This document shows positions 5,684 to 64,000 of a stretch of DNA of 64,000 nt, one piece after another. The notes under the pieces are model-generated. The model worked only from the letters and a program-made list of their open reading frames with translations, was not told where the DNA came from and searched no databases. This DNA comes from a virus (lineage: Duplodnaviria > Caudoviricetes): the IMG/VR virus record IMGVR_UViG_3300014204_000012, positions 1-64,000 of that record; one strand, written 5' to 3'. Every line of letters begins with the position of its first letter. Within the stretch, counting starts at the first letter, position 1. Made by a program: the position numbers and the translations under genes.

Positions 5684-6916
5684 TTATTGGATAATCAGGC
5701 GAGAACCAATATATGTAACAGGATTAGCTGCGCTATTACCCACAGTAGCACACAATACACCCGCATCAGCACTGCTACGAGCAGTACCACCACAGAGCAG
5801 AGCTCTCCAACCACCTCCCAATGCAGGAGCATAAAAATAATCGCAAAACTGAGTAGTTGAAGATCCACCTACACTTGCAGGAAGTATATCCCCGTTAGCA
5901 CCAAACAAGATAGTTTTTATCCATCCCCCTGTATCTGTCGGCAGTAATCCAACTAATCTTGCTCCTGTACTTGTACCATCTGCAAAATTTGCAGGGTTAT
6001 CAAAGATATAAGCCTCGCGCCTGTCAGCTAAATTGTTAATAGTGCATCCGTCTGTCCATTTCCAGATGTGTCCAAACACATTTTCAGTTCCTCGATAGCG
6101 AGGAACTGTAAAGGTTCTGTTCACCCCTGCACCTCCAAAGTTTGTAATTACGGCACTTACTTCCCCTGAACCATTTGCGAGACTATCTGAAGTTCCACAT
6201 ATAATAAAGGGATTTCGTCCGTTATAAGTATTCCATTCTGCATCAACAGCAGTTGTAACGCCATTTCCTAATCCCCCCTGTTTGTAACCCTGAGCGGTTA
6301 AATTCGCATTAACGGGTTTCTGAATGTTGTTTGTGGCATACTCCATGATCAAAAGATAAACCAATTCCTTGTAGGGGCTGTACCACTGCTGTTCATACCC
6401 TGCCCCATTTGCACGGGCATAAGTACGAAAGTTAGTTTCTGAAACAGAAGTAGTGGGGAGTACCCCAGCAAAAGAACAAAGTTTATTTGAAGCATCTTTG
6501 AATCCTTCATAGGAACTGTAATTCCAAATGTCAGATTTCACAAATCCTGGTAATGGAAGTAAAGAAACCTTTATTCTTTGAATAGTTCCTATTGTTTCAT
6601 AACGCCAATATAATGGAGCAGTTTTTCTCACACAAACATTCCCATCTGTTCCCGTCAAATCAGAAGCAGTTACTCCATCTGCTTTTTTACTCCAGTCTGT
6701 TGGATAGAGATAATAATTTACATTCTTTGTCCCATGAGAAATTACACATCCCTTTAGTAAATTCTGTGCAGGAAGAGTTCTATGTAGATCCATAGCCGAC
6801 TTACACCCCGCAATTCTAACCCAGTCAGGAGACGCTATTGACGAATCCCTTTCAATACCATACCACTGACTGGTTATGTTACTCATGTGGGCTTGTATCT
6901 GTGGAATTATACTCAT
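5684..6916 (-). CDS. Receptor-binding/fibre protein with C-terminal C-type-lectin (DGR-target-like) fold
   Basis: Motifs RGTENVFGHIWKWTDG and C-terminal GG.A...A.AG......N.A.N....IGSRL. Start reassigned to ATG 6916 (ATGA overlap with upstream stop). Confidence 0.65.
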   Translation of the reverse strand: MSIIPQIQAHMSNITSQWYGIERDSSIASPDWVRIAGCKSAMDLHRTLPAQNLLKGCVISHGTKNVNYYLYPTDWSKKADGVTASDLTGTDGNVCVRKTAPLYWRYETIGTIQRIKVSLLPLPGFVKSDIWNYSSYEGFKDASNKLCSFAGVLPTTSVSETNFRTYARANGAGYEQQWYSPYKELVYLLIMEYATNNIQKPVNANLTAQGYKQGGLGNGVTTAVDAEWNTYNGRNPFIICGTSDSLANGSGEVSAVITNFGGAGVNRTFTVPRYRGTENVFGHIWKWTDGCTINNLADRREAYIFDNPANFADGTSTGARLVGLLPTDTGGWIKTILFGANGDILPASVGGSSTTQFCDYFYAPALGGGWRALLCGGTARSSADAGVLCATVGNSAANPVTYIGSRLIIQ

Positions 6917-8169
6917 AGTTGCACCGTGTTTAAGCAAAATCTGAATATTCCACCAGATTTAGGAGTCGTAATGGCAGATAAGGCCTGAACAAGCATGTAA
7001 ATAGTTGTGTCGTCTGTTTCACAAATATACGTATAGAATGGTTGCGACTTGCCAAATATAGTATCACTACCAGCCAACAACGCATCCATTGGTACATCTA
7101 CATAACACATTCGTTTTGACGCATTGGCAAAATTATTCACAAAAGCCACATTGTCCCCTACAATGGATGCCGGAACATCATTGAAAAACCACAATCTCAA
7201 CGTGGTGGATGCAAATTGTGTTGCATCTGTTTCGACTTTAATTTCATTCAAATATCCACCACCACCGTTTAATCTGGCAGCACCAGCAAATGAAACCGGA
7301 ATTAATGTGGCATTTGCCGTAGTGTGTGCAATGGTTACAGCAAGATCACCAGTTCCAGAACCACCGGTTGGGGCGGTGAATGGTACCCCTGCTACATTCG
7401 CCTCGAACACAACGGTGTCACCTGAATGAGTTAGAACAACACCAACGGCAAGATAATCCGCCTTATTCCCCACTGAATCGAAGTCAATAGCCGTCTGCGC
7501 AAGTGTTCCATTAAATGTGGCTAATTTTGTTACACCAGCACAAATTATGTTTACAGTTCCTCCAGTTCCGGTAAGCGTTACGGTTTCCTTTTGTTTTACT
7601 TCTGCCGTGTAGGTGTTTATGGCATCACCAGCCGTGTAGTTTTCCGTATCCGCAGGTCTCGTTATTGACCCCGTAAGTTTAACGGTTCTAATCTGATCAA
7701 CAACCTTTGCACGACCAAGTGAATCAACCAATATCGGAGTAACTTCATTGTCTGTGTTTACGGCACTCGTATCAACATCCCTACGCACACCACACACCAC
7801 CAATCCTTTCGTGGTCGCCTCCGCATACGTATCCGTACCAAGAACCTTAACGGTATCGTCAATAAGTTCCAACGCTGTTGATCCACCCGAAGACGCTGTG
7901 TCTTCCAACCACAGTTCTATGTGTATCTTATCTGTGGATGCCAAAACAGGCAACGATATATCCAAAGTTATCACACCGGCAGCAATACTACACTTTACGT
8001 TCTGTTCCTCAAGTGAATAATACAACTGCGATTGTGTCTTATTGAATATAAAGTGTAACTGTGCGTTGGTAACTGCCGAATACGCTGCTGCCAAAGTTAT
8101 CGTTCTTCCTCCACTTGCAGGGGTGATGTCTGCCTCCGCTACGACTGTTAGTTTACTATAATTAGCCAT
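6913..8169 (-). CDS. Fibre-like structural protein (418 aa)
   Basis: Thr/Ala/Gly/Val-rich beta composition; first gene after promoter 8185. Confidence 0.55.
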   Translation of the reverse strand: MANYSKLTVVAEADITPASGGRTITLAAAYSAVTNAQLHFIFNKTQSQLYYSLEEQNVKCSIAAGVITLDISLPVLASTDKIHIELWLEDTASSGGSTALELIDDTVKVLGTDTYAEATTKGLVVCGVRRDVDTSAVNTDNEVTPILVDSLGRAKVVDQIRTVKLTGSITRPADTENYTAGDAINTYTAEVKQKETVTLTGTGGTVNIICAGVTKLATFNGTLAQTAIDFDSVGNKADYLAVGVVLTHSGDTVVFEANVAGVPFTAPTGGSGTGDLAVTIAHTTANATLIPVSFAGAARLNGGGGYLNEIKVETDATQFASTTLRLWFFNDVPASIVGDNVAFVNNFANASKRMCYVDVPMDALLAGSDTIFGKSQPFYTYICETDDTTIYMLVQALSAITTPKSGGIFRFCLNTVQL

Positions 8170-9333: not shown

Positions 9334-9828
9334 TTATTTGTACAGTTGATATTGTATTTGCCCTATATCAAACACCTGCGTTGTATCAAGTGATATATCA
9401 GGATTTACATTAAACCGGAAGAACCTGTACGCTTTTGCAGACGAGTTATCGAATATAAGCGTGGTGTCCCCCGTAGTTCCTGCCCATGTTTTTGTTAGCA
9501 CCGTAGTCCAAGACGCATCATCATAGAAGTATTTAGCTTCTAAGGTGACGGTGACACTCGGAGTTCCGGCAAGACTATCCAAATCCATTTTACCGTATCC
9601 TTTCAAGGCATCATACAGGTTATCAACACAGAATGTATATGTCCATGTGGAATCATCCTGGCTGACAGTCTGCGTCGCCCCACCGTTAAGTTGGAAGAAC
9701 GTCTTGTTCCTGTTAATATCAAGTTTTACATCAAACAAGGCATCCACATTCTTAACAGTATAGATTGTCTGCCCCAATGAAATCAGAGCAGACAATACAA
9801 AGATCAAAGAGAATAATACCTTTCTCAT
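9334..9828 (-). CDS. Signal-peptide-bearing beta-rich protein (164 aa) coupled to MCP
   Basis: MRKVLFSLIFVLSALISLG|Q: basic N-terminus, hydrophobic core, Gln at +1. TAATG overlap with the MCP stop. Confidence 0.7.
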   Translation of the reverse strand: MRKVLFSLIFVLSALISLGQTIYTVKNVDALFDVKLDINRNKTFFQLNGGATQTVSQDDSTWTYTFCVDNLYDALKGYGKMDLDSLAGTPSVTVTLEAKYFYDDASWTTVLTKTWAGTTGDTTLIFDNSSAKAYRFFRFNVNPDISLDTTQVFDIGQIQYQLYK

Positions 9829-12346: not shown

Positions 12347-14752
12347 TTAAAAACCCTCACCCCCGGAAGGTGACACCGGGGCAGTATCCTGTTTGGGTGC
12401 TGGCATACCCCCCTGCTGTGGCTGTTGCACTGGCTGTTGCTGTGGCTGTTGCTGTGGAACTATCATCCCTATTGCCTGTTGAAGTTGTACCTCACCCTTT
12501 TCGTATGCCTTTTCAATTATACTATTTATAGCCGCCTTATTCGATATGTCAATGGCTGTCCTCGTCTTTAACATTTCGGTTTCACTTTCAATCTGTGATT
12601 TCAACACTAATGACTGCTGTTGTATTTGTGCGTTCAGTTGTTGCATTGACTTTTCTTTTCGTTCTTCCTGTGCCTGTGCTTTTCTGTTCGCAAAAGCCAA
12701 TAACTGAGCCACACGTTTCAATGAATGACCTTCCTGAATCATTGCCTTAAACCTCACCGAATCAGCTTCCGTTATCCCCACCTTACCATCACGACCATTC
12801 TTCAATGATAGGTTTATGGTTTCTACCAAATCACGGATTTCCTGTTCTGTGGGTCTCACACGGGTACGTATGCCATACTGAACGTCGTGTCCTTCGGCTA
12901 TCTTCAACAATTCCAAGTTTGTTTCTCCAATAACACTTGCATACGCTTTCTTTGCCACCGGATACTGCCTTACCACCGCCTGTAATCTCAAACACATGGC
13001 ACGTGCTGTATCCGATTTCAGTATGTTGGTCTGTTTAAGAATACCACTCAGAATATCATTCGTGGCACCCATCGCAAACTCTGTCACCGCCTTCCCCGTG
13101 TCCGGTGCTGGTGTAGAACCTAACCACACCGGGTCTATACCTGTCAGGTCTTTAATCAACCCCAGTGCCAACGACATACTATCCCGTGCCTCAATCATTA
13201 TGTTTCCGGCACCTCCCGCAATGGGTTCTATTGTCCTGCTCTGTGAATATCCTAAAGTCTGTACATTCTTATCACGCCTGAACAAAATACCGGTCTGCCT
13301 CCACATCTTTATGATTTCAAGTGGAGTGAGTTTCTTATTCCCCAGATTCAGGTTTTCAATAGCACCAAGTTCAATACTGAACCCGTTTAACGACGCCATT
13401 GCCAAACCCTGTTGCATCTTCAACCACGCATTTTGAAACATATCCAGTGCTGGAATTAGACGTGGTAACAACGGTCTACCAACTACCTTAACAGCATGAA
13501 TAGGTAATTCCACTTCGGATTCACCATCTCTGGGTTGAACATCCATCATGCCGTAGTCGTAAATCATATCACTATCCACAACCCACGATCCCTCCATGAC
13601 CACCTTAACACTTGTAACGAGTTCTGTGTCCCGTTTACCAAGTTTCATCCTATCTTCTTTGGGGAATGTTACCTTTCTGCCGAACTTGTTTTCATGTTGG
13701 ACTTCTTTTTCGTGTAATAGGTCTATCCACTTTACATGAAACACCGGGATCAGGTAGTTATCATAGAAGTTTGAATACGCATTGGAATTAATCTTATTGT
13801 CCTTATTCCAATCATCACACAGGGGATTACCGTACTTTCCATCAAATTTCTTACACATGGATTTCAGGTCTTCTTCCTTGAACCCGTGTTGCCTTAAATC
13901 ACTTACCTTTTCAAAGGTCAGGTAAAAACCATAGTCGGGTTTGTTGTATCCACTTTCTTTGTTATACTGCACACCGGCATACTGCGGATCAAGATAACCA
14001 CACGTGACCCTCCCCGTGGTTTTGTTGTAAATATCCCGCACTAAGGCAAACCCGTTTACAGTCAAGTCAAAGATTATCCTGTCCTGAATGTTCTCATCCC
14101 ACCGTGATTCAGAAAATGCAGCCTTCAACAACATTTCCTGTGCTATGGAATAGTTTAATTTAAAACCACCCTCGGCATCATAAAGATTGAGTTCTTCCAC
14201 ATTCTCCGGTACGAAACCAAGTTCCTGTTGTGGTAATCCCACCATCGCCCGAAGTGCAGAAAACATATTCTGGAATTTTGAATCAACGTATGTTCCCCAC
14301 TTTACTGTTTCCTTTACGTCTCCGCTATACTGATCCACGGCATCCACGGATACAATGTTCACACTTGAACCCAGTTTGCTTACAATGGCATCAATGACTT
14401 TCGGCATTGGCGACATTATATTCTGATTTATGTTTAGGTAAGCACGCCTCCTACGTTTTTTACCATCAACACTATCCACAACGATCCCCGTGGATTCTTC
14501 TTTGCCGAATAGCTGCTCCTCATACTGCGTGGAATCCTGTTTACCGTATGCGTATGATCTATAAGTGGCAACTTTACTATATAGATCACCGGAAATATAA
14601 GTCGTTCCATTCAGGTAATCAGAATAAACGGAACGCACGTAATCAAGACAATACTTTTTATCTTTTTTTTCAGTCGGTGACACTCCCTTGTCATTCCTGT
14701 CCGGTGGATTGAATTTCCCCTTTGGGTAATCCGACTTAGCAAAATCAAACAT
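12347..14752 (-). CDS. Portal protein (801 aa)
   Basis: Directly downstream of terminase; size and Q-rich coiled C-terminal barrel typical of crAss-like portals. Confidence 0.85.
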   Translation of the reverse strand: MFDFAKSDYPKGKFNPPDRNDKGVSPTEKKDKKYCLDYVRSVYSDYLNGTTYISGDLYSKVATYRSYAYGKQDSTQYEEQLFGKEESTGIVVDSVDGKKRRRRAYLNINQNIMSPMPKVIDAIVSKLGSSVNIVSVDAVDQYSGDVKETVKWGTYVDSKFQNMFSALRAMVGLPQQELGFVPENVEELNLYDAEGGFKLNYSIAQEMLLKAAFSESRWDENIQDRIIFDLTVNGFALVRDIYNKTTGRVTCGYLDPQYAGVQYNKESGYNKPDYGFYLTFEKVSDLRQHGFKEEDLKSMCKKFDGKYGNPLCDDWNKDNKINSNAYSNFYDNYLIPVFHVKWIDLLHEKEVQHENKFGRKVTFPKEDRMKLGKRDTELVTSVKVVMEGSWVVDSDMIYDYGMMDVQPRDGESEVELPIHAVKVVGRPLLPRLIPALDMFQNAWLKMQQGLAMASLNGFSIELGAIENLNLGNKKLTPLEIIKMWRQTGILFRRDKNVQTLGYSQSRTIEPIAGGAGNIMIEARDSMSLALGLIKDLTGIDPVWLGSTPAPDTGKAVTEFAMGATNDILSGILKQTNILKSDTARAMCLRLQAVVRQYPVAKKAYASVIGETNLELLKIAEGHDVQYGIRTRVRPTEQEIRDLVETINLSLKNGRDGKVGITEADSVRFKAMIQEGHSLKRVAQLLAFANRKAQAQEERKEKSMQQLNAQIQQQSLVLKSQIESETEMLKTRTAIDISNKAAINSIIEKAYEKGEVQLQQAIGMIVPQQQPQQQPVQQPQQGGMPAPKQDTAPVSPSGGEGF

Positions 14753-14850: not shown

Positions 14851-17166
14851 TTACCACACGTCTATGTAGTCTTCTTCTTCGTAATTTGTCTCCTCCGTTT
14901 TTATCAAACTCGTGTATTGGCTCTTGGCACCCATCAACGCCAACCCGTGTGCCGCCAATCGGTCATACGATCTCATCTCTTCCATACCACGAATATCCTT
15001 ACATTCCTGTAAAAATGGATAAAAGTCTTCGTGCATACCCCGACCTGCAATATAGTCACGTAGTAAATTGAATAAAGTATGTTTTGAACCCTCCAAGTTG
15101 AATACACCGGGTTTCTCCTTGACTTTCCCTGTTCCTATCTCTAAATCATAAAGTAAATAACCACCAAATCCATTACGGATAAAATATTCATACGTGGTGG
15201 GTTCGTTGGTCTCTGGGTACACCATGCCCCCACACCAAATAGCAGTCATTAAAACGTCTTTGTTGAACTCATCGGTATTCCTAACACGATACCGGTATGA
15301 TAAAATGAATTTATAAGTTTGCCAATCATCAATAGATTTTCCCTTATCCACGGTTTCATCATAATTTAACAACGCCGCAATACCACCATCGGAAAGACGA
15401 CTGCCACTACCTGTCTTTTGTAGTTTAATATTTGCCTCCTGTTTATTTGCAAACCGGAATGGGTCAACACCGATTGTTATTATACCCGGATTCTCGGGTC
15501 GGTACATCGGCACGTATTCACCTGCAAATGTGGAATAATAATTGGCAATGATTTTTCTATTTGACGTGGACTTTGGTGGAAAACCAGATATTAACCACCT
15601 GCCATTTTCTTCATCATCTTTCCAACCCACATCACCACCATAAACATCCCTCACAAAATATAAATTTCCCCTGCGTACATTAGACCCCCTACGCAGTTCT
15701 GCCATACGCGTGTCTATGATCTGCATATCGAATCCAATATCACCGGATTCACCCAGAAAACAATCCATGTACTGCATTGGAAATAGTTTCCTTAATTCCC
15801 TATATTTTTCCAATGCGGTGATACTTCCGTCTTTCAACAGGGCATCACGTTCTCCCTGTAAATAAGCATCTGCCGTCTGGGTAAAACCTTCCTCTTTTTG
15901 ATAATCTAACACCTCACCAATTACGGGCATCCCATAGCTATCAATAAATCCATCAACTTCTTCTGCTGCTGATCTGAATAAACGGAACAACCCAGAAAAC
16001 GTCTGACCGCTTGATCCTATTCTTCTATAAAACTTTGATGTTTCACATAAATGACGGAAAGATGAAGAACCTGCTGCCATTTCGTCAACAGTGGATGGAT
16101 GTTCTGCATAACCATGTATTAACATTCCATTTCCCTGAGACAAACAGTTCTTTATAATATCCCACCGTTTCAAAATTTCCTCAGTAATTTTCCCCTCTTC
16201 ATCCAGAAGTGCAAACACAAGTTTCTTCCCATCATAAAATCCCGGTGACATAGTTGTTGCATACGATATTTTAGTGTGCAATCCATCTCCTGTGTAGTCT
16301 GTCTTAGAAATATCAAACTTAATTTCATCAGAACTCCTACCAGACACAGTATATGGTTTAAAAAATATCGGCAATGAATTATAAGAAGCAAGCATTTTGG
16401 ACTTGAACTGTTCAGCAGAGTGATCTCCGTTATAGGACATAAAACCAAATCCATCTGTACCAATGGTTCTCGTCACAACCTCCTCCCCATCACTCATTCC
16501 CTCATTCGTAAATCCCCCTCGTCTGTTTTTGGGCATTATTGGGCCATAACAAAGTCTCCTACCAAGATGTTTCATCTTAAATGTACCATCTGATTCCGGA
16601 ATTGCATAACCATCTTCATCAAGTTTTGCAAAAGTTTCATCGGTAGTATAACAATATTGCCTAAATAAGAACCTTTTTCTTCCAGCATCACGGTAATCCG
16701 GATAATAAATACCCTTGTCTGTATCCATTTTCCAGAAGTTCAAATACATGAAATGCCACCCGGTTATGTACGTGGGTTTTCCATTATTGAAAAACCAATA
16801 CCCGTTTATCCGATGCCACCACATTCTTTTTATCCACGCAATTTCTGTGGTAAATTGGGATTTCCGGTCTTCAAGCATATTCCAAAACCTCTTTTGGATT
16901 TTGTAATACGTGACCACTTTGGTTTTATCTGAATCAAATTCATTCTGTAATGAAGTCAACGCCTCCTCCTCCAACAATACCAACCTACGTGGTATTTCCG
17001 TTCTCTTAAACCGCTGTTCCCTGTGTTGCAAACCAAAACCATCTATAAAAGAATACCCCGGAGGTTTTGGCAACCGGAGTACCATTGGGATAAGGTCTGG
17101 ATCATTGTCATTTACGACAACGTATTTATCGGAATCTAAATACTCACTCGTCTTCGGGTGTTGCAT
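14851..17166 (-). CDS. Terminase large subunit (771 aa)
   Basis: Walker A-like PKNRRGGFT, Walker B LLDEEGK, nuclease ITIGVDPF...DRLAAHG. Confidence 0.9.
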   Translation of the reverse strand: MQHPKTSEYLDSDKYVVVNDNDPDLIPMVLRLPKPPGYSFIDGFGLQHREQRFKRTEIPRRLVLLEEEALTSLQNEFDSDKTKVVTYYKIQKRFWNMLEDRKSQFTTEIAWIKRMWWHRINGYWFFNNGKPTYITGWHFMYLNFWKMDTDKGIYYPDYRDAGRKRFLFRQYCYTTDETFAKLDEDGYAIPESDGTFKMKHLGRRLCYGPIMPKNRRGGFTNEGMSDGEEVVTRTIGTDGFGFMSYNGDHSAEQFKSKMLASYNSLPIFFKPYTVSGRSSDEIKFDISKTDYTGDGLHTKISYATTMSPGFYDGKKLVFALLDEEGKITEEILKRWDIIKNCLSQGNGMLIHGYAEHPSTVDEMAAGSSSFRHLCETSKFYRRIGSSGQTFSGLFRLFRSAAEEVDGFIDSYGMPVIGEVLDYQKEEGFTQTADAYLQGERDALLKDGSITALEKYRELRKLFPMQYMDCFLGESGDIGFDMQIIDTRMAELRRGSNVRRGNLYFVRDVYGGDVGWKDDEENGRWLISGFPPKSTSNRKIIANYYSTFAGEYVPMYRPENPGIITIGVDPFRFANKQEANIKLQKTGSGSRLSDGGIAALLNYDETVDKGKSIDDWQTYKFILSYRYRVRNTDEFNKDVLMTAIWCGGMVYPETNEPTTYEYFIRNGFGGYLLYDLEIGTGKVKEKPGVFNLEGSKHTLFNLLRDYIAGRGMHEDFYPFLQECKDIRGMEEMRSYDRLAAHGLALMGAKSQYTSLIKTEETNYEEEDYIDVW

Positions 17167-48141: not shown

Positions 48142-48309
48142 TTAGTCCTTATTAATAACCTTTTTATCAACCTCCTTTTTGGAGGTTTTCTTTTTAAATA
48201 CACTTTTCACAAAAACTACTATTTCGTCCCTGTTCTTCCAGATGAGATCAAGTGCCATTGTTAATAGCACACTTACCCACTTATTCCCTGTCTTCTCTTT
48301 TGTTTTCAT
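48142..48309 (-). CDS. 55-aa cationic amphipathic peptide coupled to endolysin
   Basis: Below track cutoff; ATGA overlap with endolysin stop; MKTKEKTGNKWVSVLLTMALDLIWKNRDEIVVFVKSVFKKKTSKKEVDKKVINKD. Confidence 0.6.
   Translation of the reverse strand: MKTKEKTGNKWVSVLLTMALDLIWKNRDEIVVFVKSVFKKKTSKKEVDKKVINKD
48169..48195 (+). terminator. Intrinsic terminator at convergence
   Basis: AACCTCC-TTTTT-GGAGGTT plus TTCTTTTT. Confidence 0.75.
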
Positions 48310-48800
48310 ACAAAATATTTAATGTATTTCTGTGGTATTTGTTTAATCAATGCTTGTCTTATTTCAGACTTTTCAATATCGGTATCTTTATTTATATCGA
48401 ATAATGGATTTTGTTTCGCCACAATGTCATTGGGTATCCTGAACGAATCCGGTTTACCAACCGCAGCAGGCCAAAATATCATACAATAAAGATCAACAAA
48501 ATCCTTGTATTTGTTTCTATGTGGGGAAAGATATTTTTTAACATATTCAAGTTGTTCTACGTTTGTCATTGCTTTAAGTTTGTCCGTAGTAGTTCCTAAT
48601 ACGATTGCTGTTTTTGGCATGAATTGGATGAGACCAGTTGCACCTATTTTATTTTGTATTGTGTGATCGAGTGTATGTGATGTTTCAAACCACATTAAAA
48701 AAAGTAAGTGATTGGGGTCTACTCCTAAATATGAAGAAATCTGAACAACTTTATCCAGAAACTCTTTTTTATTCTCTTTTATCAATTCTTCAAATATCAT
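48306..48800 (-). CDS. Endolysin, lysozyme-like/lytic transglycosylase fold (164 aa)
   Basis: MWFETS..GATGLIQFMPKTA..EQLEYVKKYL..DLYCMIFWPAA; own -7 box 48810-48817. Confidence 0.8.
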   Translation of the reverse strand: MIFEELIKENKKEFLDKVVQISSYLGVDPNHLLFLMWFETSHTLDHTIQNKIGATGLIQFMPKTAIVLGTTTDKLKAMTNVEQLEYVKKYLSPHRNKYKDFVDLYCMIFWPAAVGKPDSFRIPNDIVAKQNPLFDINKDTDIEKSEIRQALIKQIPQKYIKYFV

Positions 48801-51390: not shown

Positions 51391-51774
51391 ATGAAAAAAC
51401 TACTATTGATAACACTATTTTCGCTGATAACCATATTGGGTTATTCACAGAATTGGTACAAGGGATACGATCCGTGGATAGCAAAGGATAAGGGGTTACA
51501 CGTGGGGATTGAGTTCTTTCTACAATTTTCTGGTACTCAGATAATATTAGGAGATGGAGGAGAAAGGAAATATGCTGAACCTGCTGTTCTTGTAGCTACT
51601 TGCCTGGCGGGAATAGGAAAAGAGTTTTGTGTTGATTCACAACCCAGTTATAAGGATTTAACAGCAGATGCTGTAGGAATTGTTGCAGGATTTTTATTAA
51701 GTAGACAAGTTGAAAGATGGCACAAGAATAAAGCATACAGGGTACATAAAAGAATGGAAAGGAAACGGAAATGA
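51391..51774 (+). CDS. Signal-peptide membrane protein, YfiM-like (127 aa)
   Basis: MKKLLLITLFSLITILGYS|Q; DKGLH..GIGKE..SYKDLTADAVG. Confidence 0.6.
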   Translation: MKKLLLITLFSLITILGYSQNWYKGYDPWIAKDKGLHVGIEFFLQFSGTQIILGDGGERKYAEPAVLVATCLAGIGKEFCVDSQPSYKDLTADAVGIVAGFLLSRQVERWHKNKAYRVHKRMERKRK

Positions 51775-54647: not shown

Positions 54648-54860
54648 CTACGGGGCTTTGGGGTCTTTACTTATGAGTAGCAATAACGCCGCAATAACAG
54701 AACCCACATAGAGGATAATATCACCGGTGTCAATACCGAAGAAATCCTCCGGTTTGATACCACACAGCCGCAACACAATTACGAATATCATTGCGATACC
54801 CATTCCGGTAGTCAGTTTACTGCCACCGATGTTCCCAAGTGTTGACCTGTCCAGTTTCAT
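54648..54860 (-). CDS. Two-TM holin-like protein (70 aa)
   Basis: Two hydrophobic segments, basic C-terminus KDPKAP; ATGA overlap at 54860. Confidence 0.55.
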   Translation of the reverse strand: MKLDRSTLGNIGGSKLTTGMGIAMIFVIVLRLCGIKPEDFFGIDTGDIILYVGSVIAALLLLISKDPKAP

Positions 54861-57841
54861 AATCCCGATGAATACCAAGTCCCAACACCACCAACCATAC
54901 GATACACCAAGCGATACGCACCATAGTATCCATTTGTATCGAGTAAATTGTACACATCGAAGTTCTGTGTAGCCACATCTGGATCACCGGGATCGTCAAG
55001 GGTTATCACCACCCGCATATATGTCGGATAGAAATAATGACGTGAAGCTATTAAATTCACATAGTCATACGTCGGACACAAGTCCAATACTTCCTCGTGC
55101 ATACCGCCACCGTAGTTGGCGTACCTACCCTTATACGACACGTATGCGGTTATGCTGTCCTGAGTGAGAACAGTACGTGTCCACGAACCATCAGATAATG
55201 ACCACGCACCAACCTTAAATGTTCCATTGAAATCGGTAAGATTATAGAATGCTGTCGTATTGGGAACATCTAATGTTGACGGAGCCGTACCACAGGTATT
55301 AGCTATGGAATCGGTGTATCCGTCTACGGTCTTCTGTAACAGGATTTGTATGGTGTAATTCGGATCGTCGTAGGACACATTTGTTGTGTCGTAATGCGTG
55401 TACATCTTCGGATACGTCACCGTTGTTCCGTCACCACAAAGTGCATTTGAAGACGCCGAGAACATCAACAGTTTGTAGTGGTTTACATTCTCCGGGTCAC
55501 TGGAATACGATGTCATTTTCGTACTTGCCAATACAGTAAGCATCGAGTTCTTAAACAGATTGTAGTCGGTAAGGTTACGAGCCACCAGTTTAACCGTATC
55601 ACTTGACTTGATATAAGAGATGGAATCGGTGAATGTCCGGCAACTATATCCCGAAGACGGAGTTTCCAACCACGCACAGTTTACATTCCTATTAAGGGAT
55701 ATTTTGAAGTCATTACCCCAACGGTTAGATGTGGGAACGTAAGTCATGTTTGTTGCCCACCCGGATGTTTCAAAGATGTAATGCTGTACGTCATTCTGGA
55801 TGTGTGCTGACTTATTTGAATAGGTTAAATCATAAGTCCCTGCTGAACCGTTCCACACCATCGTTATTGCTGCCGTGGTGTCAATAGTCTGGTAGTCCTT
55901 TTCAAATGGTGTACACAGGTCGAAGTCCAGAGTGTCCAAGCATTTCCATGACAACCTCCAGTTGGTATTCGTGGAATACGGATCAATCTTGAACTTGATC
56001 TTATCCCCTGTGGCAACTGTTGGGAGTGTCGTTATCTTATTGAAGTACGATGAATATATATTGTGAAGTGGGAAGTTATAAGCACCATAAGCCGTACCCA
56101 CCTGCCATGTCTCCAATAGGGTTTCAGTGGCTCCGTGGACAAAATAAACCCTTAAAGTGTCTATAACGTTCTCACCATAGAAGAACCACGGCACATAAGA
56201 AGTCGTCGCATCCAAGTCCATCGAAATCTCCCTGGTGGGGAGTTCGTCGGTATTCAACTCATAAGAATACGACACCGAATGTTCGTAGGCAATAGCTCCT
56301 TCCGTGTATCCACTTCCGTTATCACAGATATAAGCTGCTGACACCACATCCGAGAGACAGGTGGCAAGATCTGGACTGTATGTACCCTGTTGTGTATAGG
56401 CAGAGACGTATTTCTCACCATTTACATACACCCATCTGATCACAGGGGTATAGGTTCCGCTAACTACAGGCATAGCACTCGTAAACGGCTGTAACACGTA
56501 ATTGGTTATCCCTGCACCACTGGTGGCCGTGGTGAACTTAAATACGCCCCCCACATACCAGTCAATAACATAGTCACCCACCGTGGCTGTGGTGGAAGAC
56601 AAGTCACCGATGTCAAGGTGTCCCACAGTCGGAACTATATCAGCGAGGTACAAGTTGGCAAAGTCACACATCTGAGCGGTAACAGTAACAGTGTCGCAAG
56701 GTGCAATAATGTCACAGATGTTCTTCCATCCAAAGTCACAGTCTGCATTGCTCAATTTGACAAGCACCTGACCTGCTAAACCACCCGGGGGAACGGGACA
56801 GCCATTGAGGGAGACGATAACACTGTCTGAACCTATCTTAATGTCTATTAAACTATCACCCTCCTCAACGTATAGCACGTGGTTATTGAACACTGTATCA
56901 ATGTCGCCATCATTCGCCACTATCCAATACACGGAATCCAGATCAGCAGTTCCACTTGACGTATTGATGTGTACCTTCCGGTGTCCTCCTGCACTCACAT
57001 CGTACACGGGAACCCAATCAAGAGTGTCGTAAGTTGAAGTGGTTAGTTCAGGAATGTCCATGTTCACAATCACGTTCCCGCTGGAGCTAAAGTAACCACC
57101 ACCACCAAGTCCAATCCCTGCTGTCACACTTAGTTTAGTGGGATCAAAAGCAAGTACAATGGTGTGATCGGTGTTGTTCAGACTTATCGCCATGAAAGCC
57201 GAATCCACATCAATTCCCCGGAAGTAGAATACATTGTCTGTGGTATTGTTCCACACCCCTATTCCTTCGTGGTTGCCATTCTGAGCATCGTAGAACCCTG
57301 CTGAATCAAACACCTGTGTAATCGGTATCCAATATGCCTTACCGTTTATGTTTTGCAGTATATCCCCGGAGACACCGTCTGTGGCATTTAGTTTCGTTAT
57401 CCTCAGTGAATCCCCGTCAAGAAAATAAAAGTTATTTGTGTTTATGGAATCCTCCACTTCCAGTGAGTTCATCACATGAACATCATACACGTTTGTATTG
57501 TATATTCCACCGTGAGTGTCCCTTTTCCACAGGGGATCGAGTAAGTCGAGAATCTTCAATACTTTCCAATTATACTTTACGTTATTGGACACTCTAATGT
57601 AGTTGTCACCTGTAACCCATAGCTTGTGCCAGTTAATTGAATCGGAACTGAACTGATGGTAGGTAACATCGAGAACCGGAATTATGGTATCCCGGTATGC
57701 AAAGTAACTTTGTGAGAACAGTGTGTCCCGTGCCATAAGGTTTCTATCATAGTCCCCTACGGTCAATGTGGATGGTGACACCACTGCCTGACCAAATCCA
57801 ATCACGGGTATAAATAACAACAAAAACAAAAGTCTTTTCAT
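54857..57841 (-). CDS. Large signal-peptide-bearing Cys-rich fibre/adhesin-like protein (994 aa)
   Basis: Start at ATG 57841: MKRLLFLLLFIPVIGFG|Q; fibre motif PPGGLAGQVLVKLSNADCDFGW; 14 Cys. Confidence 0.7.
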   Translation of the reverse strand: MKRLLFLLLFIPVIGFGQAVVSPSTLTVGDYDRNLMARDTLFSQSYFAYRDTIIPVLDVTYHQFSSDSINWHKLWVTGDNYIRVSNNVKYNWKVLKILDLLDPLWKRDTHGGIYNTNVYDVHVMNSLEVEDSINTNNFYFLDGDSLRITKLNATDGVSGDILQNINGKAYWIPITQVFDSAGFYDAQNGNHEGIGVWNNTTDNVFYFRGIDVDSAFMAISLNNTDHTIVLAFDPTKLSVTAGIGLGGGGYFSSSGNVIVNMDIPELTTSTYDTLDWVPVYDVSAGGHRKVHINTSSGTADLDSVYWIVANDGDIDTVFNNHVLYVEEGDSLIDIKIGSDSVIVSLNGCPVPPGGLAGQVLVKLSNADCDFGWKNICDIIAPCDTVTVTAQMCDFANLYLADIVPTVGHLDIGDLSSTTATVGDYVIDWYVGGVFKFTTATSGAGITNYVLQPFTSAMPVVSGTYTPVIRWVYVNGEKYVSAYTQQGTYSPDLATCLSDVVSAAYICDNGSGYTEGAIAYEHSVSYSYELNTDELPTREISMDLDATTSYVPWFFYGENVIDTLRVYFVHGATETLLETWQVGTAYGAYNFPLHNIYSSYFNKITTLPTVATGDKIKFKIDPYSTNTNWRLSWKCLDTLDFDLCTPFEKDYQTIDTTAAITMVWNGSAGTYDLTYSNKSAHIQNDVQHYIFETSGWATNMTYVPTSNRWGNDFKISLNRNVNCAWLETPSSGYSCRTFTDSISYIKSSDTVKLVARNLTDYNLFKNSMLTVLASTKMTSYSSDPENVNHYKLLMFSASSNALCGDGTTVTYPKMYTHYDTTNVSYDDPNYTIQILLQKTVDGYTDSIANTCGTAPSTLDVPNTTAFYNLTDFNGTFKVGAWSLSDGSWTRTVLTQDSITAYVSYKGRYANYGGGMHEEVLDLCPTYDYVNLIASRHYFYPTYMRVVITLDDPGDPDVATQNFDVYNLLDTNGYYGAYRLVYRMVGGVGTWYSSGL

Positions 57842-57855
57842 AATTCTATTTTGTA

Positions 57856-57863
57856 CAAAGATA
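57856..57863 (-). promoter_or_regulatory. -7 element TATCTTTG
   Basis: 14 nt upstream of ATG 57841. Confidence 0.65.
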
Positions 57864-57867
57864 ACAC

Positions 57868-57913
57868 AAAAAGAAATGCCCCTGTGGGCTCCTGAGAGAC
57901 CCGTAGAGGCATT
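57868..57913 (-). terminator. Long hairpin terminator
   Basis: AATGCC..GGCATT closing stem, T-rich tail on minus strand. Confidence 0.65.
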
Positions 57914-57967
57914 ATCTTCTGAAGTTGATAATTTGTTCACCTGTACCCAAAAACACCCGTACAGGCG
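57900..57967 (+). repeat. Dispersed element, copy 8
   Basis: CCCGTAG..GAAGTTGATAA (11/11 with the reverse complement of copy 1)..CCCGTACAGGCG. Confidence 0.6.
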
Positions 57968-58034
57968 TTGTGGCGTGTCGTATAACCGCTGACTAACCAT
58001 GCGGCATAGATCAATATAAGTGAACCCAGGATCA

Positions 58035-63782: not shown

Positions 63783-64000
63783 TTACCACGAGGATAACGG
63801 GGTTCTTTTCCAAACACTGTCTTGTACACATACATAAAAATAATTAATATCGTATGCCATTTGTCCAGCCATACCCGGTGATGTCTTTGTTGCTGGTGCT
63901 GCCACCCACAGGGTAGGTGAAGTTGGGTCTTGTTCTACTACGTTACCACTTGCGTCAACTGCTAAGAACTTTGTGGTTATTCCAGAGAATGTACCCGATC
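63783..64000 (-). CDS. 3' end of another fibre protein (5' truncated by window edge)
   Basis: ..APATKTSPGMAGQMAYDINYFYVCVQDSVWKRTPLSSW*, a common fibre C-terminal motif; not in ORF track. Confidence 0.75.
   Translation of the reverse strand, partial: SGTFSGITTKFLAVDASGNVVEQDPTSPTLWVAAPATKTSPGMAGQMAYDINYFYVCVQDSVWKRTPLSSW

Follow-up and report, generated by a model that had tools for sequence, protein, structure and literature searches.

Towards the end of the 64,000-nucleotide stretch analysed here (the window, positions 1 to 64,000 of the IMG/VR record IMGVR_UViG_3300014204_000012, Caudoviricetes) lies a gene for a 994-residue protein, p994, which seems to combine the modular build of a tail fibre with the leader and glycosylation motifs of an exported protein. 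The window makes up the first 64 kb of one 80,012-bp contig (39.9% G+C), whose 123-bp direct terminal repeat marks it as a complete phage genome. TerL (14851-17166) and the portal (12347-14752), like p994, are encoded on the minus strand. The nearest TerL relatives, at ~25-27% identity, come from Flavobacterium, Cellulophaga and Maribacter phages. The genome is that of a Bacteroidota phage that, judged by this marker, is distantly related to Flavobacteriia podophages, including the Cellulophaga Pachyviridae. In the interpretation that we favour, and consider probable, p994 is an exported virion fibre that would join the particle after the inner membrane opens. The gene and its parts are as follows.

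54857-57841, minus strand: p994 coding sequence, ATG at 57841, 994 amino acids (aa)
57864-57910, minus strand: terminator-like GC hairpin and U-run, from sequence and folding (hairpin 57878-57910, tail to 57864)
57856-57863, minus strand: Bacteroidota -7 box TATCTTTG (consensus TAnnTTTG), 14 nt before the p994 ATG
57791-57841, minus strand: predicted signal peptide, residues 1-17, with K2, R3, an 11-residue hydrophobic core (LLFLLLFIPVI), G15 at -3, G17 at -1 and Gln at +1
56942-57790, minus strand: N-terminal module, residues 18-300, from profile search and alignments
57584-57790, minus strand: residues 18-86, common to the leader-bearing 1,304-aa neighbour (37% identity, E = 1e-14), a candidate docking part
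56966-57169, minus strand: fibre repeat unit, residues 225-292 (..LSVTAGIGLGGGG..IPELT..YDVSAGGHRKV), from its match to the protein P0053
56666-56800, minus strand: cysteine joint that links the fibre part to the C-terminal module, residues 348-392, with the GGLAGQVLVKLS..W motif and five invariant cysteines
54860-56671, minus strand: C-terminal module, residues 391-994, all-beta, from profile search and an AlphaFold2 (AF2) model

A first-pass annotation, made from the sequence alone, had given this gene the coordinates 54857-57841 and a length of 994 aa, both of which are correct. The open reading frame (ORF) is real, although it lies on the minus strand; a plus-strand reading of the same interval is full of stops and was ruled out. 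The minus-strand frame is open across 54857-58000, and alternative starts would give a longer in-frame product (ATG at 58000, or the GTG start used in gene call P0002). Translation of this extension is unlikely because the terminator-like hairpin and the -7 box both lie inside it. The start methionine at 57841 is common to six of seven close homologues (44-70% identity), the seventh (P0009) being shorter and starting at aligned position 265, and distant homologues (L006/L020 and L019) have an in-frame stop 3-5 codons upstream of the leader methionine. The N terminus is the one first described, MKRLLFLLLFIPVIGFG|QAVV.

The earlier proposal that p994 has its own promoter is also supported, in that the hairpin and U-run are followed by the -7 box, which the L004/L005 homologue carries in identical form at the same distance from its ATG. 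This arrangement supports transcription of p994, at the end of the late block, from a terminator/promoter unit of its own, an argument from consensus and not from a mapped start. A sigma-70 promoter scan found sites no more often than in shuffled sequence and is uninformative on the promoter. Two hairpins, the second with a U-run, occupy 57864-57966 (minus strand) upstream of p994; taken as a whole, the 193-nt spacer has a better fold than its shuffles (z -2.4). An element of ~70 bp is present in eight copies that align only loosely; the copy upstream of p994 is treated here as the terminator/promoter unit.

The cleavage site of p994 predicted from sequence, GFG|Q, has the pattern of a Sec leader cut by signal peptidase I (SPase I) and also conforms to the Bacteroidetes Q-rule, under which Gln occupies the +1 position of the SPase I site (PMC5837995, PMC10653852). 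A leader filter run over all ORFs of the genome returned six candidates, four of which are real genes, encoding p994, the 1,304-aa protein, a 164-aa protein (9334-9828) and a 127-aa early-strand protein. Each of the four has Gln at +1, preceded by small residues at -1 and -3. The 127-aa protein (51391-51774, plus strand; ..GYS|Q) lacks glycosylation motifs; its YfiM-like lipoprotein match is weak (E = 0.004) and falls far short of the cut-off. The Q-rule leader of p994 is retained in six of the seven close homologues and is present in phage contigs L004-L006 and L019-L021. Across 12 divergent relatives in the N-module alignment it is the leader pattern that is kept and not its sequence, with Gln in at least 90% at the +1 column.

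The distribution of O-glycosylation motifs is a second, independent signal of p994 export. The Bacteroidota motif, D-S/T-(A/I/L/V/M/T), is used only on non-cytoplasmic proteins (reviewed in PMC12871550). p994 contains 21 such motifs against 6.2 in shuffled sequences (z ~6; 3.4 times chance), and 21 of its 23 D-S/T dipeptides precede an allowed residue (binomial p = 4e-7), while the reversed motif and the Glu and Asn analogues are at chance level. Of the 21 sites, 12 are conserved in six or more of the seven homologues. The 1,304-aa protein has 36 motifs against 9.7 expected, and no late protein that lacks a signal peptide has an excess comparable to that of p994.

An internal control is provided by the C-terminal module, a single family with leader-linked members and 89 members without a signal peptide. 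Leader-linked members carry 1.0 motifs per 100 residues and the others 0.37 (maximum 0.86). The ratio of allowed to non-allowed D-S/T contexts is 55:11 in the leader-linked set and 197:311 in the leaderless set (odds ratio 7.9, p = 4e-12), although the leader-linked set is mostly one clade of close kin, so that the p-value overstates independence. A separate, lipoprotein-type member (P0017) has a ratio of 10:4.

These observations bear on the proposal that p994 is not exported at all, its hydrophobic N terminus being an uncleaved structural part of a cytoplasmically folded fibre and its motif excess a by-product of beta-rich repeats. To our knowledge, and as textbooks have it, all known tailed-phage fibres fold in the cytoplasm; most relatives of the C-terminal module are leaderless; and two proteins without a signal peptide, the portal (12347-14752, minus strand; 6 motifs against 2.0) and a 418-aa late protein (6913-8169, minus strand; 7 against 2.7), are mildly enriched in the motif (z ~3). 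Non-export is nevertheless hard to reconcile with a leader pattern that outlasts its sequence, with a motif bias that is specific (flat controls and depleted non-allowed third residues) and with the way in which that bias follows the leader within one module family. We regard non-export as very improbable and p994 as very probably exported and O-glycosylated. In this respect the interpretation first given to p994 is strongly supported, from the conserved Q-rule leader and the motif excess; a further strand of it, which concerned cysteines, fares differently (below).

A profile search of 1.8 billion representatives splits p994 into N- and C-terminal modules. The N-terminal part, residues 1-300, occurs in 10 distant full-length proteins, all 10 of which are motif-rich and have a Q-rule or lipobox-like leader; their C termini differ (Fib_succ_major, beta-helix and others). 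Phage contigs (50-77 kb) from IMG/VR and from metagenomes also encode the N-terminal module; their late blocks hold at least two large leader-bearing, motif-rich proteins, one example having 782 aa and a ratio of allowed to other contexts of 26:2. No match to the N-terminal module was found among GenBank phages, and a pattern scan of GTDB genomes was also empty, as was an IMG/VR scan with the full-length p994 alignment. Several relatives of one or other module (P0071, P0092, P0017 and L003 4037-4846) have lipobox-like leaders (..TAC, ..GAC or ..TSC) in place of Q-rule leaders, which suggests lipoprotein versions of the same fibre parts.

The middle of the protein may link p994 to tail proteins. 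P0053, which has no signal peptide, contains 10 stretches of the 225-292 unit (E = 2e-9) and matches PHROG tail proteins at 1e-24; the link from p994 to recognised tail families is transitive only, through this repeat. The fibre joint motif that had been noticed at the outset (PPGGLAGQVLVK..DFGW) falls at residues 351-372 and is nearly invariant in eight homologues. For residues 18-395, the ESM Atlas gave scores of up to 0.89 against viral hypothetical proteins and 0.85 for the T4 gp9/10 cluster, which we treat as a lead only.

The C-terminal module has hundreds of protein matches (367 at E ≤ 1e-10), most of them ~600 aa long and leaderless, and is joined to many different N termini. In 12 other viral contigs it stands in structural-looking neighbourhoods or at the end of proteins of 2,100-2,600 aa, and one copy is in a 735-kb phage. 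The AF2 model of the module, built from an alignment of 98 sequences, has several beta-sandwich domains (predicted local distance difference test (pLDDT) 90.2, predicted template modelling score 0.84). Foldseek and VIA searches with this model returned only generic jelly-roll or carbohydrate-binding-type matches (best Z 9.9 over ~100 residues; whole-module Foldseek TM-scores 0.1-0.16), and we claim no family for it; a sequence profile search of the Protein Data Bank gave no match at E ≤ 1. This module is the likely receptor-binding part. p994 is modular: a leader-linked N-terminal module is combined with a fibre repeat and with a C-terminal module of 600 residues that is all-beta and exchangeable. 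A conserved N-terminal anchor with an exchangeable C-terminal domain is what would be expected of a tail fibre or receptor-binding protein.

The 14 cysteines that had been counted in p994 are confirmed (residues 348, 368, 376, 382, 392, 495, 506, 634, 643, 722, 734, 802, 850 and 922). In the 98-sequence alignment of the C-terminal module, cysteine pairs co-vary as disulfides would (668/847, phi 1.0; 643/922, phi 0.86). Columns 668 and 847 are both cysteine in 95 of 98 sequences and both lack it in three, including p994, in which the missing residues look like a lost disulfide pair. The first-pass annotation had taken the cysteines as a sign of folding in the periplasm. That argument fails, because relatives without a signal peptide are equally rich in cysteine (12.9 per module in 89 proteins, compared with 12.4 in leader-linked ones); the disulfide-like pairs are therefore a trait of the module and give no evidence for periplasmic folding.

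An exported protein with a large beta-rich, binding-type C terminus might also be an adhesin, displayed on the infected cell through type IX secretion or as a surface lipoprotein. This alternative had been raised at the start, and fold matches of low TM-score to the Bacteroides surface glycan-binding protein SGBP-B and to a Bdellovibrio fibre fit it, as does the Sec leader. A check for a type IX C-terminal domain, proposed at the same time, found none at E ≤ 1 (TIGR04183, TIGR04131 and PF18962) in the whole protein or its last 199 residues, and Pfam gave none either; a very divergent domain could escape this search. p994 has no lipobox: its +1 residue is Gln and not Cys, and its first Cys is residue 348. 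With no known route to the outer membrane, and with a C terminus from a module that in other phages is mostly without a signal peptide, p994 is most improbable as a surface adhesin.

If the genome is read on through its terminal repeat, the late block of the minus strand extends from TerL through genes for proteins of 2,584 and 1,304 aa, then of 726, 181, 248 (Laminin_G_3), 598 and 97 aa, to p994, its last large gene. Three further minus-strand features are listed here alongside p994.

63783-64000, minus strand: 3' end, within the window, of the 1,304-aa partner gene (other end at contig position 67697), with a Q-rule leader and the N-terminal segment common to p994
9334-9828, minus strand: 164-aa leader protein (..SLG|Q), directly after a 468-aa gene, with 4 motifs against 1.3 expected
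54648-54860, minus strand: 70-aa ORF with two hydrophobic helices, its ATG overlapping the p994 stop (ATGA)

The 164-aa protein at 9334-9828 would bring the exported proteins of the particle gene block to three. The 2,584-aa protein (68824-76578 of contig L001, minus strand), upstream of the fibre genes, has no Cys and two glycosylation motifs. The 70-aa ORF has a charged C terminus (..SKDPKAP) and is holin-like by topology only; a family search with it gave no match. Six kilobases from it lies the sole candidate for an SLT-type lysin, a 164-aa protein (48306-48800, minus strand) with a lytic transglycosylase domain match barely at the Pfam cut-off (21.4 against 21.3 bits). It is encoded on the minus strand within a plus-strand block, is followed by a 55-aa ORF (48142-48309) and is a likely endolysin candidate.

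We infer that p994 belongs to the virion from its fibre-type architecture and from a precedent in cultured phages. GenBank notes describe gp085-087 of Cellulophaga phage phi18:3 (KC821620, Pachyviridae) as structural proteins by experimental tandem mass spectrometry (MS/MS) proteomics, and gp091-094 of phi10:1 (KC821618, Assiduviridae) carry such a note too; their MS/MS status rests on these notes. All seven have Q-rule leaders (..SQ|, ..AQ| or ..GQ|). Phage phi46:3 has five such leader-bearing genes in a row, and across phage genera the first 102 residues of these proteins are ~90% identical while the remainder differs. By analogy with these MS/MS-verified proteins, joining of p994 to the particle at lysis is plausible.

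The same leaders can be read differently. p994 could be exported and glycosylated without entering the virion, as a periplasmic or lysis-released accessory protein built from fibre parts. It might then act in superinfection exclusion, keep progeny from being trapped by masking the receptor or debris, or assist envelope breakdown. Its leader and motifs fit this proposal, as do its own promoter, the coupled two-helix membrane ORF that follows it and the nearby fibre candidates that lack signal peptides. The prophages of Porphyromonas gingivalis encode five Q-rule proteins whose function is unknown and which have been read as host-modifying (PMC10367356). The top VIA matches of the C-terminal module include XepA, an 'exported protein' of PBSX, tied with generic beta-sandwiches: residues ~115-247 of the model align with XepA (6I56) and with GOLD, collagen-binding and CBM domains (Z 8-9.9, root-mean-square deviation 2.2-3.0, 87-111 residues), matches that cover one of several domains of the module. 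A mask or decoy, however, should have something to mimic, and we found no copy of the C-terminal module without a signal peptide elsewhere in the genome. Throughout the phage lineage the late block holds two to five such large proteins in synteny, which swap their C termini as receptor-binding proteins do; proteins with the same kind of leader are in purified virions of the two cultured phages; and a route to the cell surface is absent. The module swapping, the missing leaderless copy and the cultured-phage precedent favour a virion role, and we consider the accessory role, the strongest rival, unlikely.

Several points weigh against p994 as an exported virion fibre. Nothing in the sequence itself places p994 in the particle, and p994 has no PHROG or Pfam match of its own, nor any significant NCBIfam match for the whole protein or its parts. 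The full-length AF2 model, from eight sequences, is poor (pLDDT 50.6, and below 50 for residues 1-389) and leaves a trimeric shaft unsupported. Fibre candidates without a signal peptide (726, 598 and 248 aa) adjoin p994 in the late block. The Cellulophaga leader proteins share no detectable sequence with p994, and those of phi46:3, phi18:3 and phi10:1 have 0-3 glycosylation motifs, at or below chance, unlike the p994 lineage. Exported proteins that co-purify with virions could moreover contaminate preparations, and we know of no mechanism by which a tailed phage takes up periplasmic parts.

If p994 is an exported virion fibre, we would expect the following course. Sec would export it and SPase I would cut after G17, whereupon host glutaminyl cyclase would cyclise Q18 to leave the N terminus pyroGlu-AVVSPSTLTVGDYDR. 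On the periplasmic side, up to 21 sites could be O-glycosylated and disulfides could form. When the inner membrane is breached at lysis, periplasm and cytoplasm would mix inside a still-closed outer membrane, and the matured fibre could then dock through its N-terminal module onto particles built in the cytoplasm, leaving the C-terminal module to recognise the host. We see an even chance that this description extends to the host-recognition gear of a whole Bacteroidota phage lineage (p994, the 1,304-aa protein and perhaps the 164-aa protein at 9334-9828), which would be made in a second compartment, Sec-exported, capped by pyroglutamate, O-glycosylated and disulfide-bonded, and fitted at lysis.

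On the accepted view, assembly of tailed-phage particles takes place entirely in the cytoplasm. The proposal, if true, would add a periplasmic step to tailed-phage assembly, and the resulting two-compartment pathway, of a kind not known for tailed phages, would yield host-glycosylated virions. It would tie infectivity to genes for host secretion, glutaminyl cyclase and glycosylation, which would thereby count as new host factors and offer new ways to phage resistance. The virions would bear strain-specific host glycans, and this would matter for how gut and environmental Bacteroidota phages are recognised by immune systems, bind mucus and resist proteases. The comparison of leader-linked and leaderless members within one module family is, in addition, a reusable sequence test for export-coupled glycosylation.

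Known systems share parts of this pattern. The O-glycoproteins (PMC12871550) and Q-rule substrates (PMC5837995, PMC10653852) of Bacteroidota resemble p994 in their Sec leaders, Gln at +1 and motifs; unlike these host proteins, p994 is encoded by a phage (of lytic type) in a particle gene block and has a motif density far above chance. The Q-rule proteins of the P. gingivalis prophages are likewise phage-encoded, but they belong to temperate phages and, unlike p994, are not large, syntenic, fibre-like late proteins. Canonical tail fibres have the conserved N-terminal part, the exchangeable C-terminal module, the place at the end of the late operon and the PHROG tail repeat in common with p994, but their folding and assembly are cytoplasmic and they lack a signal peptide. 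Filamentous phages are put together as they are extruded at the membrane. Their g3p and g8p are described as virion proteins with Sec leaders that are assembled outside the cytoplasm (PMC4823517). Unlike filamentous phages, the p994 genome encodes TerL and a portal, and its heads are therefore packaged in the cytoplasm.

The first-pass annotation knew of no characterised example of such a protein, which holds in so far as no explanation is on record: our literature search found no paper discussing leaders on virion fibres of Bacteroidota phages, the closest being that on the P. gingivalis prophages (PMC10367356). It does not hold for the proteins themselves, given that MS/MS-verified structural proteins with leaders exist in phi18:3 and phi10:1. 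These Cellulophaga phages resemble the p994 phage in having large fibre- or spike-type late proteins with Q-rule leaders, several per genome, at the end of the structural block. The last of the leader-bearing structural genes of phi18:3 has a small membrane ORF (gp088) behind it, as p994 has the 70-aa ORF, and the TerL of the phi18:3 group is homologous to that of the p994 phage (~25% identity). The C termini of the Cellulophaga proteins are of pectate-lyase type, unlike that of p994, and a related spike of Maribacter phage Panino is without a leader; the leader is therefore a lineage-specific trait. Cultured Cellulophaga phages with the same kind of leader make the question directly testable.

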